A stretch of 64,000 bases of DNA from Rikenellaceae bacterium (GTDB lineage: Bacteria > Bacteroidota > Bacteroidia > Bacteroidales > Rikenellaceae). Positions 31,057 through 53,454 of this stretch are shown piece by piece (position 1 is the stretch's first letter; each line of letters begins with the position of its first letter). The stretch spans positions 65,742-129,741 of the forward strand of contig SUZN01000002.1 of the NCBI GenBank assembly GCA_015059905.1, given 5' to 3'. The position numbers and the translations under genes were made by a program. The notes beneath the pieces are model-generated. The model was not told the origin of the DNA. It was given only the letters and a program-made list of their open reading frames with translations, and searched no databases.

Positions 31057-31060
31057 TAAA

Positions 31061-31092
31061 AATCCCGAGGTCAAACGCCTCGGGATTTTTTT
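31061..31092. terminator. Bidirectional terminator between potD and the convergent SGNH gene
   Basis: 10-bp stem aatcccgagg / cctcgggatt with a T7 tail, preceded by an A-run. Confidence 0.75.
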
Positions 31093-31110: not shown

Positions 31111-31827
31111 TTACTTTGCTGTGTGAGGAATTGGCTTGTACTGCTTCTTCTTTGGGGTCTTCAAAACCTTGTTCAAAGCCTCACAAACCATAGGCTCCAT
31201 CACTGTGCGGTAGCACTCAAGATTTGGGTGGCAAGTGTCGTTAGACCACTTCTTTGGAAGACCCAAAACCTCGTCAGCGAGTGAAGAGTGGTAGTCGAGG
31301 TAGTAAACCTTATTCTCGTCAGCCCAAGCCTTAATGAGCTTGTTGAGCTCAACGATTGTTGGACCTGGCTTGAGGTCACGACGCCAGCCGAATACTGATG
31401 TTGGAGGTACAGAGCAGAGGATAACCTTGATGTCGTTAGCCTGCGCCAGCTCAACCATCGAGATGATGTTGTTCAGGATGTTCTCGTGAGAGATAGCACC
31501 GTTGTTCTCGGCTACATCGTTTGTGCCCGCCATAATCACAACACACTTTGGCTTGTGAGCCAACACGTCAGGACGGAAACGGCACAACATCTGTGCTGAT
31601 GTCTGACCGCTGATACCGCGACCGATAAAGTTGTTCTGCTTGAAGAACTCTGGGTCCTGATAAGCCCAACCCTCGGTGATAGAGTTACCCATAAATACAG
31701 CATCAGGACGTACTGTTACCTGTGCATTCTCCTTTGCGAAGCGACCGAAACCAGCCCAGTCGTGCTTCTGTGCCATACCGTTCAACGCGAACAGACATAC
31801 AGCAAGTGTAAAAATTAGTTTTTTCAT
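31111..31827 (-). CDS. Secreted SGNH/GDSL hydrolase (acylhydrolase/esterase)
   Basis: Block I FMGNSITEGW, block III GTND and block V DTCHPN. Has a signal peptide. Start refined to the ATG at 31827. Confidence 0.8.
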   Translation of the reverse strand: MKKLIFTLAVCLFALNGMAQKHDWAGFGRFAKENAQVTVRPDAVFMGNSITEGWAYQDPEFFKQNNFIGRGISGQTSAQMLCRFRPDVLAHKPKCVVIMAGTNDVAENNGAISHENILNNIISMVELAQANDIKVILCSVPPTSVFGWRRDLKPGPTIVELNKLIKAWADENKVYYLDYHSSLADEVLGLPKKWSNDTCHPNLECYRTVMEPMVCEALNKVLKTPKKKQYKPIPHTAK

Positions 31828-31844
31828 TATCAAATAAATTTTAA

Positions 31845-33173
31845 TTAAAGTAGTATAAAATTGTAAAAAAATTCTATAATAATCAATAATCCAAAGCCAC
31901 ACAAAAATATAGCAAATATTTCACCTCCTAAGCTAAAAAAAATCATAACGACTGCAAAATAAACGACTAAACATAATCCCAATAATAGTTTTTCTTTAAA
32001 TGTCATCTCTGCAAAAAACATCTGAACGGTTTTAAATATTTTTTGGCTACCTCTTTTATTTATAACATAATCGCGATTCACTATTGCTACATCTTTACTG
32101 AAATCTTCCACATAATCATATTTTAAAGGAATATTCTCTCCCCCCGTTTTATCTACAAAGCCCCATCTATCATTTAATCTAACCGCAGCTAAACCTTCAC
32201 TGAAAGCACGTGCAAAATCATACTTCAAAGAAATAACTTCTTTGCCCGTTTTGTCTATAAAGCCGTATTTACCATTTAATTTAACCCATGCCATGCCTTC
32301 ATTGAATGACCCAATAGAATCATATTTTGCAGGAACAATAACATTTCTAGTGGATTTTAAACGAAACCCATAATTCTCGTTACCCTTAAAGATTTCAAAT
32401 TCGTTATCAGGCAAGGTTGATAGATACTCATCAAGTTTTGCTTTCAGTTCTACGACAACTCGTTTTTGAGAATCTCTTTCAAGTCTTACAATTTGAGTAT
32501 TCGAAATGTGAGGAAAATTTGATACAACAAATTTTAATTCGTTCTCACCAATGGGCAAATTAAACTCTGTATATTCGGTAGCCTTAGCAAGACCTAACTC
32601 TTGTTCAAAATTATAAACTAAACAATCACAATCACTTTTAACCAATACTTTGGCAATTACTTGTCCTGCTTGATATTTAGACATAGAAAAATCTTTGCAA
32701 GGAACTATTGGTCGAATATATTTTTCGACGATATGATCTATATCAACTTCGAACTTTTGCCCCGAACGAATTTCAAGACTATTTTGAGTTTTTATAATTT
32801 CCAACTCTTTTGGAAAATTATTTGGTAAAAGGTTATGATTAAACTCGTTATCAGGGTTTAAGAATATGATATTCAACCCCGACTCTTTAGCTTGGCAAAT
32901 TTCACGACGCACCCAGTCACCTTCATTTACACAATTATCCATTGCGTTCTTTGTAAGAACACAAAGAAATACTTTTGCCTGCTTGATTGCACCCAAGATT
33001 TTTTTCTCAAAATCTTCAGCACCTATTTGATTGTGGTCAAAGAATACTCGCCCCTTATATCCTCTTTCTTCCAACGCTTGCTCTATATTGCGAGCAATGG
33101 ATGTTCCCCATTCTTTTCCATTCTCATCTTTTCGACGATAACTGATAAATATATCGTATTTCTCTTGTGTCAT
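31845..33173 (-). CDS. TIR-domain protein fused to a beta-rich middle region, ~3 WG (KWG-type) repeats and a C-terminal two-helix membrane anchor
   Basis: DIFISYRRKD...GDWVRRE(91)ICQA TIR signature. The repeat unit (K/R)(Y/W)GF.D..G......YD....F.EG.A.V occurs three times. The hydrophobic tail covers aa ~397-442. The gene has markedly low G+C. Confidence 0.85.
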   Translation of the reverse strand: MTQEKYDIFISYRRKDENGKEWGTSIARNIEQALEERGYKGRVFFDHNQIGAEDFEKKILGAIKQAKVFLCVLTKNAMDNCVNEGDWVRREICQAKESGLNIIFLNPDNEFNHNLLPNNFPKELEIIKTQNSLEIRSGQKFEVDIDHIVEKYIRPIVPCKDFSMSKYQAGQVIAKVLVKSDCDCLVYNFEQELGLAKATEYTEFNLPIGENELKFVVSNFPHISNTQIVRLERDSQKRVVVELKAKLDEYLSTLPDNEFEIFKGNENYGFRLKSTRNVIVPAKYDSIGSFNEGMAWVKLNGKYGFIDKTGKEVISLKYDFARAFSEGLAAVRLNDRWGFVDKTGGENIPLKYDYVEDFSKDVAIVNRDYVINKRGSQKIFKTVQMFFAEMTFKEKLLLGLCLVVYFAVVMIFFSLGGEIFAIFLCGFGLLIIIEFFYNFILL

Positions 33174-33200
33174 AGTTTGGATAGTGGTGTAATATCATTA

Positions 33201-33208
33201 CAAATATA
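33201..33208 (-). promoter_or_regulatory. -7 box (TATATTTG on the minus strand) for the TIR gene
   Basis: Exact TAnnTTTG match 28 nt upstream of the ATG at 33173. Confidence 0.45.
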
Positions 33209-33250
33209 CAAAAAATAGCGTTGCAACGCCATAGTTCCCCAAATTTTTGT

Positions 33251-33258
33251 TATTTTTG
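33251..33258 (+). promoter_or_regulatory. -7 box (TATTTTTG) for the threonine-synthase-like gene
   Basis: Exact TAnnTTTG match 28 nt upstream of the ATG at 33286. Confidence 0.45.
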
Positions 33259-33285
33259 CTCATTGAAATAAACTAAACAACTATA

Positions 33286-50582: not shown

Positions 50583-50661
50583 AACAAAAAAGGTTATATT
50601 AGTAATAATTTGTGACGAAGATAATAAAAAAATATTAAATTTCACTAATTTTGTGTTGAAA

Positions 50662-51576
50662 ATGGTAATTATCAAAGCAAAACATATTAAAAATGCAGCT
50701 TTTAGGGCAGGCTTTGACCTTTGCGGCATAGCCAAGTGCAGTGAGTTCGCAAAAAACCGAGCAGCCTTTACGGATTGGCTGGCGAAGGGTTATGACTCAT
50801 CGCTTGAGTATATGCGCCGCAATGTAGAGGTGCGTTTTGATGTGGAGCAGCTGGTAGAGGGCGCTCGTACGGTAGTGGTGTGTGCCGTAAGCTACAAGTC
50901 CGACATAAGTGGGGGATATGGTGCTGATGACAAATGCAAAATCGCCTCCTATGCCTGCAACCGAGATTACCACAAGACATTAAAGAAGATGCTCAAGGGC
51001 GTACTGCGAGAGTTGCAGGATATTTACCCTGCGATTGAAGGACGTGCCTTTGTTGATTCTGCCCCTCTGCTTGAAAAGCAATATGCTGTGGAGGCGGGTC
51101 TGGGCTGGATAGGGCGGCAGTCGTTGCTTGTAACGCCCGAGTATGGCAGTTATGTCTTGCTTGGAGAGTTGGTGCTCAACGCCGAGACGGATGAGTATAA
51201 CAAACCTATGGAGTCAGCAGGATGTGGTGAGTGCCGCCGTTGCATAGATGCCTGCCCAACGGGAGCGATTGTTGAGCCAATGGTAATCAACACCTCGCGT
51301 TGTATATCGTGTCACACCATAGAGTCACAGCCTGCGGCAGATGTAACGCTCAACGGCTGGATATTTGGTTGTGACGAGTGTCAAAACATCTGTCCATATA
51401 ACAAAAAGGCGAAGCCACACAGCTCCGCCGCATTTAATCCTCTGTTTGACCCTCGCGAGATTAGCCCCAAAGAGTGGCTTGCGATGAGCGAGGAGGAGTT
51501 CTCCGCCCGTTTTGGCTCAACACCGCTAAAGCGTAGCGGTCTGGAACGAATAAAGGAGAACATCAACCGAGGTTAG
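50662..51576 (+). CDS. queG: tRNA epoxyqueuosine(34) reductase
   Basis: 4Fe-4S motifs CGECRRCIDACPTGAI and CISCHTIE, and CDECQNICPYN. Confidence 0.85.
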   Translation: MVIIKAKHIKNAAFRAGFDLCGIAKCSEFAKNRAAFTDWLAKGYDSSLEYMRRNVEVRFDVEQLVEGARTVVVCAVSYKSDISGGYGADDKCKIASYACNRDYHKTLKKMLKGVLRELQDIYPAIEGRAFVDSAPLLEKQYAVEAGLGWIGRQSLLVTPEYGSYVLLGELVLNAETDEYNKPMESAGCGECRRCIDACPTGAIVEPMVINTSRCISCHTIESQPAADVTLNGWIFGCDECQNICPYNKKAKPHSSAAFNPLFDPREISPKEWLAMSEEEFSARFGSTPLKRSGLERIKENINRG

Positions 51577-52427
51577 TCTATAAACTCGCCAAAGAGATTT
51601 ATATGTTTGTATCCATCCTCTGTCTGCACCATAGCACAACCAGCGGAGAATGGAAAGGCATTCTCAAACTGAAGCTCAATAACGAATTCCCCCAAATGGT
51701 TGATATAGCCCCACTTGTCGGCAACACTTACAGCCGCCAAGCCTTCGCTAAATGGTAATGCTTCATCATATCTCGGCTCCACAGCCCACTCGCCCGCGTG
51801 ATTGATATAACCGCAGCGACCATCACACTTGACCAAAGCAACCCCTTCGGTGAAATCCCACGCATCATCATAAAGGCAGGGTATCGCCAGCTCCTCGCGG
51901 CGATTGATAAAGCCCCATTTCTCACCAATCTTCACTGCGGCTAAGCCTTCGTAAAAATCGCCATTGTCGTCATACTTGAAATCAATGACAACATTGTTGT
52001 TAAAATCGATAAATCCATATTTGCCATTCTTGCCTGCTGCCGCCACGCCACTACTGAAATTCAGACTCAAACTCTCATATTCTGCGGGGATGACCTCGTT
52101 GAAATCATAATCAAGAATACCCATCTTTCCGTCACGCTCAACAATGTAGAATGTTCGCTGGTGTGGGTCAAAATCAAAGCTCACGCAATCAAAAGGCTCG
52201 TCATAAACGATATCCAAAACGACCTCACCCGCCTTGTTGATAATGCCCCATTTATCGCCCTTACGCACCTCGATGCGCTCACCAAACCATACATTCTCAT
52301 TTATATAGTCATACTCGGCGGCAATAAGTACCTCGCCCTGTGTGTCGCGAAATCCCCACTTGCCATTCTCCTTAAAACGCACAAACTCCTCATCGGGAAG
52401 CTTCAGCAGATACTCTTGTCGTGTCAT
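51573..52427 (-). CDS. WG-repeat (KWG-type) protein, cytoplasmic
   Basis: About 7 consecutive repeats of the form GKWGF(I/R)D..GE.VI...YD....F.EG.A.V. Start refined to the ATG at 52427. Its 3' end overlaps queG by 4 nt (convergent genes). Confidence 0.8.
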   Translation of the reverse strand: MTRQEYLLKLPDEEFVRFKENGKWGFRDTQGEVLIAAEYDYINENVWFGERIEVRKGDKWGIINKAGEVVLDIVYDEPFDCVSFDFDPHQRTFYIVERDGKMGILDYDFNEVIPAEYESLSLNFSSGVAAAGKNGKYGFIDFNNNVVIDFKYDDNGDFYEGLAAVKIGEKWGFINRREELAIPCLYDDAWDFTEGVALVKCDGRCGYINHAGEWAVEPRYDEALPFSEGLAAVSVADKWGYINHLGEFVIELQFENAFPFSAGCAMVQTEDGYKHINLFGEFID

Positions 52428-52445
52428 AAGCCAAATTATTTTAGA

Positions 52446-52453
52446 CAAATATA
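52446..52453 (-). promoter_or_regulatory. -7 box (TATATTTG on the minus strand) for the WG-repeat gene
   Basis: Exact TAnnTTTG match about 18 nt upstream of the ATG at 52427, immediately after the prs terminator. Confidence 0.45.
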
Positions 52454-52455
52454 GC

Positions 52456-52491
52456 AAAAAAAGCGAGATTGCTCACGCTGAGCAACCTCGC
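52456..52491 (-). terminator. Intrinsic terminator of prs
   Basis: 13-bp stem with 12 of 13 pairs (gcgaggttgctca / tgagcaatctcgc on the minus strand), followed by T7. Confidence 0.75.
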
Positions 52492-52512: not shown

Positions 52513-53454
52513 CTATTTATAGAAAAGCGAGCTAATCTCCTTGTAGTTGTGAACGTGCTCGATAACCTCTGCGAAGATGTCGGCAACAGACAACACAGTA
52601 AACTTGCTCAAATCCTTCTCTGGATTCAATGGAATAGTATCGGTAACGATAACCTCCTGCAACTGGCTCTCGTTGATACGCTCGTAAGCAGCTCCAGACA
52701 ATACAGGGTGAGTGATAACGGCACGAACGCTCTTTGCTCCCTTCTCCATAAGCATATTGGCAGCCATACAGATTGTACCAGCAGTATCAATCATATCATC
52801 AACGATAATGATGTTACGACCCTCTACCTCGCCGATAGCAGTCATACTACCAACCACGTTAGCCTTTGCACGCTCCTTGTGAGAGATGATGATTGGAGCG
52901 TGAAGGTGCTTTGCGTATGAGTGAGCACGCTTTGCGCCACCCATATCAGGTGAAGCGATTGAGAGGTTCTCAATGCCGAGATTTTTGATATATGGAACGA
53001 AGATACCACTTGCATACAATGCATCAACAGGAACATCGAAGAAACCCTGAATCTGGTCTGCGTGCAAGTCCATAGTCATAATACGATCCACACCAGCAGC
53101 AACCAACAAGTTTGCAACGAGCTTTGCTCCAATTGGTACACGTGGACGATCCTTGCGGTCCTGACGAGCCCAACCGAAGTAAGGGATAACAGCGATAACC
53201 TTGTAAGCCGACGCACGACGAGCAGCGTCAATCATCATCAAAAGCTCCATCAGGTTGTCAGATGAAGGGAATGTAGATTGAATTACAAATACGGTGCAAC
53301 CACGAATTGACTCGTTGTAGTAGGGTTGGAACTCACCGTCGCTGAACTGCAACACCTCTGCGTCTCCCAACTCTGAGCCGTAGCTCTTAACGATTTTCTC
53401 TGCAAGATAACGCGATGCGCGTCCTGTGAAAAATTTAATTTTATGAACAGCCAT
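52513..53454 (-). CDS. prs: Ribose-phosphate pyrophosphokinase
   Basis: DLHADQIQGFF and the PRPP-binding loop VDDMIDTAGT. Confidence 0.92.
   Translation of the reverse strand: MAVHKIKFFTGRASRYLAEKIVKSYGSELGDAEVLQFSDGEFQPYYNESIRGCTVFVIQSTFPSSDNLMELLMMIDAARRASAYKVIAVIPYFGWARQDRKDRPRVPIGAKLVANLLVAAGVDRIMTMDLHADQIQGFFDVPVDALYASGIFVPYIKNLGIENLSIASPDMGGAKRAHSYAKHLHAPIIISHKERAKANVVGSMTAIGEVEGRNIIIVDDMIDTAGTICMAANMLMEKGAKSVRAVITHPVLSGAAYERINESQLQEVIVTDTIPLNPEKDLSKFTVLSVADIFAEVIEHVHNYKEISSLFYK

Follow-up and report, generated by a model that had tools for sequence, protein, structure and literature searches.

A Constant SARM1-Like TIR Head Joined to an Exchangeable WG-Repeat Cassette in a Protein Family of Gut Alistipes

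Introduction

Does a solitary TIR gene lying among housekeeping genes of a gut bacterium encode an immune receptor, or a sensor for something else? The question is raised by a 64,000-nucleotide stretch of a Rikenellaceae genome (contig SUZN01000002.1, positions 65,742 to 129,741 of the forward strand; here called the window), in which a single gene encodes a protein of 442 amino acids (aa) that joins a TIR domain to WG repeats. An earlier note on this DNA, made from its letters, took this TIR-WG gene for a candidate NADase-type defence module. Sensor-fused TIR NADases are a central theme of bacterial, plant, and animal immunity; the known bacterial ones either depend on partner genes or contain an NTPase switch. 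The TIR-WG protein looks like an immune-type receptor of a large and uncharacterised family, in which the head stays constant while the tail behaves as an allele that can be exchanged and passes from one lineage to another.

Results and Discussion

Anatomy of the TIR-WG Protein

The protein is made up of four parts: a TIR domain, a seven-strand β-sandwich, WG repeats, and a hydrophobic two-helix tail (Table 1). The full-length AlphaFold2 model, with a mean predicted local distance difference test (pLDDT) score of 85, arranges the TIR (residues 1–153), a low-confidence linker, strands at 173–241, a short helix at 244–253, three-strand units at 259–379, and two long helices in this order. The TIR domain, β-rich region, WG repeats, and hydrophobic C-terminal helices that had been proposed for this gene are all present by Pfam, hydropathy, and AlphaFold2. 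No hydrophobic segment is found at the N-terminus by hydropathy or in the model, in agreement with the proposal that a signal peptide is absent. Both Pfam families that had been expected are significant: TIR_2 (PF13676) matches residues 8–109 (E = 2.5e-10; 41.3 bits against a cutoff of 28), and WG_beta_rep (PF14903) matches three stretches (E = 2.5e-35; 120.6 bits).

By sequence and by predicted fold, the TIR is closest to SARM1 and TIR-1 among solved structures. A phmmer search of the PDB finds Caenorhabditis elegans TIR-1 (8p2m; E = 6.9e-10) and the human SARM1 TIR (E of about 1e-9, to 2e-9) at 27%–30% identity. Foldseek with the predicted model (E = 8e-9) returns SARM1 or TIR-1 in all of its first 24 matches, followed by the TIRs of plant TNL proteins; isolated SARM1 and TIR-1 TIR chains superpose on the model with template-modelling (TM) scores of 0.76–0.86 and root-mean-square deviations of 2.1–3.1 Å. 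The segment DWVRRE(91)I aligns on DWVHKE(642)I of SARM1, which places Glu91 at the position of the catalytic Glu, as had been suggested. The SARM1 numbering was fixed through a G601P variant chain in the same phmmer output, in which the E642A chain (7cm7) scores 32.5 bits against 35.2 bits for the equally long wild-type chain (7cm5). The Glu91 column is invariant in three family alignments (31, 11, and 95 members), and the FISYRR and DW..E motifs are likewise invariant. This predicted fold and the invariant catalytic motif suggest, with fair confidence, that the TIR head would be competent as an NAD+ glycohydrolase.

The β-rich region at about 150–255, which the earlier note had been unable to assign, is resolved by AlphaFold2 into a sandwich whose seven strands span residues 173–241 (pLDDT 91.6 when the domain is modelled alone). 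Residues D181, C184, and G209 are invariant in the family. The best Foldseek match is 6hif_Y (TM score 0.69; E = 3.5e-3), and further neighbours include usher C-terminal domains and the transthyretin-like regulatory domains of carboxypeptidases M and N, all at the level of a generic prealbumin-like fold; a sequence profile of the sandwich has no match in the PDB. An identity as PEGA was considered and rejected, as Pfam gives neither PEGA nor CarboxypepD_reg and the fold matches are generic (E > 1e-3). The sandwich is a common fold with a new sequence family.

The WG region is modelled as repeated three-strand units (pLDDT > 90). The three repeats that had been read at about 268–385 are the three scored by Pfam, and the model adds a fourth, degenerate one (about 352–379). 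By sequence the region has no solved relative in the PDB (one chance match, E = 0.17), and Foldseek of the whole model against viral structures returns low-scoring giant-virus WD40/BTB matches and one TIR match. One paper that mentions the WG repeat places it among repeat families lacking a known structure; a literature search on the WG repeat with TIR, PF14903, and WG_beta_rep found no functional study.

The tail begins after K/R-rich residues. Kyte-Doolittle analysis gives hydrophobic stretches at about 393–416 and 418–442 (19-residue means up to 2.76), and AlphaFold2 gives helices at 392–414 and 418–441, bearing out the two hydrophobic helices that had been placed at about 397–442. Two-helix tails of unrelated sequence are found in six relatives (P0003, P0004, P0017, P0020, P0021, and P0095). 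From their position before the predicted hairpin, the WG repeats of this protein should be cytoplasmic.

A Constant Head and an Exchanged Cassette

Comparison of the window with its syntenic ortholog (contig L002) separates the head from the tail. The TIR has a ratio of nonsynonymous to synonymous divergence (dN/dS) of 0.073 and a synonymous divergence (dS) of 0.75, equal to that of the flanking genes (0.79 for the PALP-family gene and 0.78 for mannose-6-phosphate isomerase [PMI]), so the head has co-diverged with the chromosome under strong constraint and has long been resident. The dS is 0.22 in the sandwich, 0.013 in the WG region, and 0.03 in the tail. In a sliding comparison, identity is 0.77–0.90 in the background and 0.98–1.00 over positions 32452–32003. 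Positions 33080–33259, which hold the promoter and the first 30 or so codons, are also 99%–100% identical between the two contigs, against 77%–90% for the rest of the TIR; such a stretch is either another tract of recombination or an anchor for it that has been conserved.

Replacement of the cassette is seen within the species. On contig L176 (PALP dS of 0.074 from the window), the same head is followed by a different WG-and-tail cassette. One breakpoint falls near residue 251, immediately ahead of LPDxEF, and the other a short way upstream of the GDSL start codon; the flanks are 97.4% and 99.4% identical. Relative P0004 shares 99% identity with the query in the TIR, 92% in the sandwich, and 53% in the WG region, and its tail is unrelated. 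On contig L177 this site, between the GDSL and PALP genes, is occupied by a third cassette, and P0267 is a hybrid allele with the P0004 tail. At another site of the family, beside dapB, P0017 has a transmembrane tail and P0009 has none.

The GDSL|PALP site is empty in several Alistipes species, and others carry a different TIR-WG type there. An origin of the gene by very recent insertion, suggested by empty sites in the species with the highest protein identity (L003, 95%), was rejected because L003 is by dS no closer than L002. The second TIR-WG type (L007:4031-5884, L015:2499-3743, L018:4881-5885, and L008:1-529) comprises low-GC genes for proteins of 334–617 aa with three to 12 repeats, a different TIR subtype, and no sandwich; these proteins begin near-identically to the query (M.QEK[YF]DIFISY).

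A Large Family with Many Tails

The combination of TIR_2 and WG_beta_rep is not unusual: proteins with both domains, of about 320–720 aa, make up the bulk of 3,124 matches, and the head family (TIR plus sandwich) runs to about 1,300 clusters. TIR-WG proteins are common in Alistipes and among other metagenome proteins, and the database name for them is simply "WG repeat-containing protein [Alistipes sp.]" (NCBI); no description of TIR-WG proteins or of the head family was found in the literature. The usual layout is a TIR, the sandwich (TDLDC...LPLGDN), often a Lys/Glu-rich coiled coil, the motif LLSLPDDEF, a variable number of WG repeats, and an end of the form FYIDKNGNRVE. Most members have no transmembrane segment, a minority including the query have a two-helix hydrophobic tail, and a few have a transmembrane segment between head and repeats.

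Membership of the head family was defined by a contiguous match to a 241-position profile, of which the query is the first row, together with the invariant E, D..C, and G columns. The query belongs to the family by this definition. A search with the TIR-and-sandwich profile gives 1,295 clusters at 50% identity (E ≤ 1e-30); of the 150 best matches, the majority span the two domains (positions 1–240). Among 95 representatives drawn from these 150, the tails are WG repeats (20), Lcl_C (18), Sel1 (17), and FGE-sulfatase (six), and also TPR, LRR, MORN, and WD40; all are repeat or ligand-binding modules. What the family conserves is thus the predicted enzymatic head together with the sandwich; the tail is a binding module that can be swapped, and membrane segments may be present or absent. 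Five proteins of up to 1,414 aa (P0122, P0124, P0160, P0162, and P0172) have two to four TIR stretches, or a head far from the N-terminus, and represent tandem-TIR architectures.

When metagenome contigs were scanned with the TIR-and-sandwich alignment, most matches were generic SARM1-like N-terminal TIR proteins aligned over residues 1–157; WG repeats were found in none, and L093, L094, L099, L108, and L125 alone extend into the sandwich region. Many of the proteins on L091–L170, from gut and soil metagenomes, carry a single transmembrane segment at about 150–180 followed by other C-terminal domains, a layout that would give the topology of a Toll-like receptor, with the TIR inside and the C-terminal domain outside. 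In the surroundings of L099 or L094 (both TIR-sandwich-FGE-sulfatase loci), TIR_2, FGE-sulfatase, and RyR domains are each matched by one additional protein in an aggregate scan of the two loci, a hint that another related gene lies near one or the other.

The family also reaches beyond Bacteroidota. Two Paraburkholderia megaplasmids match residues 1–245 by tblastn at 27% identity, so the head family extends to Proteobacteria. These matches (H5 and H6) are in Paraburkholderia caribensis (e.g., NZ_CP015960.1:346332-347075), where the PLSDB table shows no gene.

Family members are single genes, found at six sites: between GDSL and PALP genes; between dapB and a pectate-lyase-like gene; between rubrerythrin and ABC-F genes (in three genomes); between GH116 and GH43 genes; beside an Oxidoreduct_C gene; and among glycan genes. 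No partner gene is conserved across these sites.

The Locus, Its Promoter, and Its Composition

The flanking genes point to an Alistipes (Rikenellaceae) of ruminant-gut metagenomes. The neighbours of the TIR-WG gene are a GDSL hydrolase gene on one side and, on the other, a PALP-family gene transcribed divergently from it; the wider surroundings are of a housekeeping kind (solute-binding protein, ABC transporter, PMI, and NAD synthase). GDSL is a resident gene and adjoins PALP in the empty-site genomes, where the gap between the two is about 120 bp in many other Alistipes species. A TA(T/C)ATTTG box stands 25–30 nucleotides upstream of the first ATG at occupied and empty sites alike and precedes GDSL when the site is empty; in the window it reads TATATTTG, which we take to fit the Bacteroidetes −7 promoter consensus TAnnTTTG. 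The TIR-WG gene is therefore placed between the resident promoter and GDSL. A scan for terminator-like sites finds none between the two genes and a strong hairpin (31058–31090) after GDSL, and they are probably on one transcript. Just upstream of the box, a hairpin that holds the perfect palindrome GCGTTGCAACGC, found solely in occupied sites of the P0001 type, could be an operator or attenuator.

Table 1. Features of the TIR-WG locus in the 64-kb window
Feature	Coordinates	Strand	Basis
TIR-WG gene, whole	31845..33173	(-)	ORF list (ATG start, 442 aa); Pfam TIR_2 and WG_beta_rep; AlphaFold2
TIR domain, SARM1-like, residues 1-153	32715..33173	(-)	phmmer against PDB; Foldseek; dN/dS
Glu91 codon, predicted catalytic residue	32901..32903	(-)	aligned with SARM1 E642; column invariant
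Seven-strand β-sandwich, residues 171-243	32445..32663	(-)	AlphaFold2 of the domain alone; Foldseek
WG repeats, residues 259-385	32019..32399	(-)	Pfam, three units; one degenerate unit in the model
Two hydrophobic helices, predicted membrane hairpin, residues 392-441	31851..32000	(-)	hydropathy; AlphaFold2
Exchangeable C-terminal cassette	31828..32420	(-)	starts near residue 251, immediately ahead of LPDNEF; includes the stop codon; ends one base short of the GDSL ATG
GDSL-family lipase/acylhydrolase gene	31111..31827	(-)	Pfam Lipase_GDSL_2, E = 5e-26; 17 bp downstream of the TIR-WG gene
TATATTTG box	33201..33208	(-)	27 nucleotides upstream of the ATG; sequence reading
Hairpin ATGGCGTTGCAACGCTAT followed by a T run	33215..33232	(-)	just upstream of the −7-like box; terminator-like scan; upstream alignment

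The low guanine-plus-cytosine (GC) content reported for the gene is confirmed: the gene has a GC of 0.327 where the window as a whole has 0.4745, the lowest value among all 1329-bp stretches (mean 0.474, standard deviation 0.029), about five standard deviations below the mean. Third-position GC (GC3) is 0.251, compared with 0.577–0.605 in four neighbouring genes, so the bias lies in codon usage as well as in amino acid composition; elsewhere in the window, low-GC patches are intergenic spacers. Low GC was considered and rejected as proof of horizontal transfer, since it is found at every family site examined (GC3 of 0.25–0.45 against a locus GC of 0.44–0.51); as a trait of the family it gives no sign of recent foreign insertion.

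Three further observations concern the neighbourhood. In L005 (2567-4930), the equivalent of the GDSL|PALP gap holds genes for a 369-aa protein with SH3_3 and multiple transmembrane segments and a 412-aa Cons_hypoth698 membrane protein, and GDSL is missing; accessory genes in general may tend to settle in this gap. Three genes past PALP on the contig of the window (L001:4336-6255), a glutamine-dependent NAD synthase (CN_hydrolase plus NAD_synthase) is encoded about 3.7 kb from the predicted NADase gene, as it is in L002; the proximity is probably coincidental and due to resident synteny. A second WG-repeat gene lies at 51573-52457 on the minus strand (six repeat units, Pfam E = 5e-65; composition like that of resident genes, with GC 0.458 and GC3 0.505), between ORFs of 307 aa (50653-51576) and 313 aa (52513-53454). 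It encodes repeats only, has neither a TIR nor a transmembrane segment, and carries the same YLLKLPDEEF cap; with just 37%–44% identity to the repeats of the TIR-WG protein, it was rejected as a donor of the cassette.

A Proposed Mechanism

We propose, with moderate confidence, that the protein is a TIR NADase tethered to the membrane, facing the cytoplasm, and held in check by auto-inhibition, and that its exchangeable WG cassette senses a trigger and so drives NAD+ depletion and arrest. Because the gene stands directly behind the GDSL promoter and probably shares its transcript, expression is probably routine, and the enzyme would then have to be held inactive. TIR active sites form only on TIR self-association, as in SARM1, plant TIR-NLRs, and bacterial TIR systems. 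By analogy with this requirement, the WG module would be the part that binds the trigger, most likely one that originates in an invader or in damage to the envelope. On binding, the N-terminal SARM1-type TIR heads would be brought together on the cytoplasmic side of the membrane, where NAD+ would be consumed, as predicted from the fold, the aligned Glu91, and the invariant motifs. Loss of NAD+ would in turn arrest or kill the cell, as in abortive infection or altruistic shutdown. The β-sandwich would be a conserved adaptor joining enzyme to sensor.

The two-helix hairpin would serve as an anchor. The earlier note had left it open whether the TIR, the hairpin, or both act as the effector; the SARM1-like TIR with its catalytic Glu fits that role, whereas the hairpin is optional in the family and is thus likelier to be an anchor than a killing device. 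The domain anatomy, the extent of the family, purifying selection on the head, and exchange of the tail are direct results; NADase activity, topology, and trigger are inferred, as is an immune role, which is suggested by the evolutionary asymmetry between head and tail and the accessory distribution of the gene.

Several results count against an immune role. The earlier note had proposed examining whether homologues lie near known defence genes and had named purely housekeeping surroundings as telling against defence. In a small sample, PADLOC finds genuine defence genes among 0 of 92 neighbours at nine sites (65 neighbours at five sites and 27 at four further head-family loci). The surroundings are housekeeping or glycan genes, which weakens the defence call on the note's own terms. 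Neighbour matches to mad3, mad8, AriA, GajA, PtuA, and mad2 were rejected as cross-hits of ABC-F, UvrA, PotA, PrmA, and GH2 proteins. A scan of viral contigs with the protein finds no relative; phage records give matches to WG repeats only, and plasmid records give WG-only proteins and matches to TIR plus sandwich only, the full architecture being absent from both. No flanking direct or inverted repeats and no mobile-element repeat signatures are present at the locus. The alternative cassettes (L176, L177, and P0267) come from one short metagenome contig each, the contrast between the window and L002 being drawn from long contigs, and the gene is not volatile at the finest scale: none of the 24 contigs with an identical PALP protein lacks it. 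In Ser/Thr kinases, and in a number of TIR proteins too, WG repeats come after a transmembrane segment; such layouts fit general signalling as well as immunity, with repeats that would work on either side of the membrane.

The strongest rival is a physiological, non-immune signalling receptor in which WG repeats sense an envelope, cell-wall, or nutrient cue, presumably their role in the Ser/Thr kinases too, and the TIR responds by changing NAD+ levels or by making ADPR/cADPR-type products that tune metabolism or dormancy. We think it possible but distinctly less probable than the immune sensor. The kinases in question (P0007 and 11 others, with WG repeats after a transmembrane segment), the members with a transmembrane segment between TIR and WG (TIR-TM-WG), the stable positions among housekeeping genes (the rubrerythrin|ABC-F site is common to three species), the fixation of the gene in its sub-lineage, and the lack of a detected defence association all agree with it. 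No conserved nearby partner gene would read a nucleotide signal, however, the distribution among species is patchy, and replacement of modules within a species together with their sharing between diverged lineages would be unusual for a housekeeping sensor.

An effector acting outside the producer, which would block host TIR signalling or poison neighbouring cells by NAD+ depletion, seems improbable. Bacterial Tcp/TIR virulence proteins and the "eukaryote-like" repeat proteins of symbionts are precedents, the Sel1, LRR, WD40, TPR, and MORN tails are typical eukaryote-like repeats, and variable C-termini in a gut commensal recall polymorphic effectors. Yet the protein has no signal peptide, secretion-system domain, or adjacent immunity gene; polymorphic toxins vary the toxin at the C-terminus, whereas here the TIR is N-terminal and constant; and the C-terminal hairpin predicts retention in the inner membrane of the producer. 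Less probable again is a non-enzymatic TIR that serves as a structural scaffold or adaptor assembling other proteins at the membrane: animal TIR adaptors do act in this way, but the catalytic Glu and its surrounding motif are invariant across 95 diverse members, and the nearest structures are enzymatic SARM1 TIRs, not adaptor TIRs. That the gene is a recent foreign import, functionless or decaying, might be read from its place as the lowest-GC segment of the window and from the empty sites, but is largely refuted by the TIR dN/dS of 0.07 with a dS equal to that of the flanks, a sign of long residence; the intact frame of the identical 442-aa protein on the 24 contigs read and the low GC common to the family at all sites also speak against it.

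Implications

The immune-sensor proposal can be widened, tentatively and at lower confidence than for the single protein, to the whole head family: Bacteroidales, and other bacteria with them, may have in it a germline-encoded repertoire of receptors that do without an NTPase, with a constant SARM1-type NADase head and, locus by locus, allelic recognition cassettes that recombine within and between species. The modules would include WG, lectin-like, Sel1/TPR, LRR, WD40, and MORN types, either cytoplasmic or across the membrane with Toll-like-receptor topology. Genes of this family lie among housekeeping genes, so such a repertoire would be missed by guilt-by-association screens.

In this unnamed family, abundant in gut Alistipes, the bacterial domain that most resembles the SARM1 enzyme head is attached directly to binding modules that can be swapped. 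Should the family prove immune, it would extend single-protein abortive-infection sensors into a major gut phylum, give a role to the function-less WG repeat, and show that some defence genes lie outside defence islands. If it is not, the protein would still be an NAD+-consuming switch in abundant gut bacteria, and as such relevant to the reported TIR-derived NAD metabolites in the gut (PMC9092222). In either case, the cassette alleles provide a natural comparison of one head with different tails.

Comparison with Known Systems

As the earlier note had anticipated, no named defence system matches the protein. The best PADLOC matches of the TIR part have E-values of 4e-4 to 0.015, the lowest E overall (2e-4) is to a Cas1a model with no stretch passing alone, and the NCBIfam model ThcB4, with a cutoff of 220 bits, gives the protein a score of 33.

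SARM1 and TIR-1 share with the query the FISYRR and DWVxxE motifs with the catalytic Glu, and by analogy SARM1 would also resemble it as an auto-inhibited enzyme switched on by self-association. The SARM1 TIR is C-terminal, after ARM and SAM domains, whereas that of the query is N-terminal and has neither.

In DSR2, a SIR2 NADase head is joined to a long sensor tail that binds phage protein, and phage triggers have been demonstrated. Like the favoured model of the query, it is a partner-free single chain with an N-terminal head that destroys NAD+ and a C-terminal repeat-like sensor; the two differ in the fold of the head (SIR2 or TIR), no PADLOC model matches the query, and the triggers of DSR2 are known whereas those of the query are proposed. 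The TIR-STAND receptors (plant TNLs and bacterial Avs/bNACHT) likewise combine a TIR head with a diversifying repeat sensor. The query differs from them in having no NTPase (NB-ARC, NACHT, or STAND), in whose place the sandwich of about 70 residues stands between head and sensor.

Thoeris ThsB and the TIR effectors of CBASS, Pycsar, and SPARTA are prokaryotic TIRs that act on NAD+ and require partner genes (ThsA in Thoeris, a cyclase in CBASS and Pycsar, and a short Argonaute in SPARTA). ThsB models match the query below their cutoffs (E = 0.009–0.05), and no ThsA (SIR2/SLOG or Macro) is found among its neighbours. The SAVED_TIR model of CBASS matches the TIR part only (E = 3.6e-4), with no cyclase among the neighbours, and neither the protein nor its neighbours match APAZ or Argonaute. 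WG-repeat Ser/Thr kinases and secreted WG proteins share the repeat family and, in many relatives, the LPDxEF cap. Their repeats follow a transmembrane segment or, in repeat-only proteins, a signal-like N-terminus and look extracytoplasmic, whereas those of the query precede the hairpin.

The same general theme, but not this architecture, has been described by comparative genomics (Kaur, Burroughs, Iyer, and Aravind, eLife 2020; PMC7159879). That paper, which makes no mention of WG repeats, covers systems in which TIR, caspase, or kinase heads are joined to diversifying C-terminal binding domains of the FGS/lectin type; they are organised around vWA-MoxR or NTPase partners, in many cases with diversity-generating retroelements. 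FGE-sulfatase tails are common to both families, but the vWA-MoxR or NTPase partners and the retroelements are absent at the query locus. Set against these systems, the architecture alone would not surprise a specialist; what is noteworthy is how large this unnamed family is, that it is absent from defence islands, and that its cassettes are exchanged across species.

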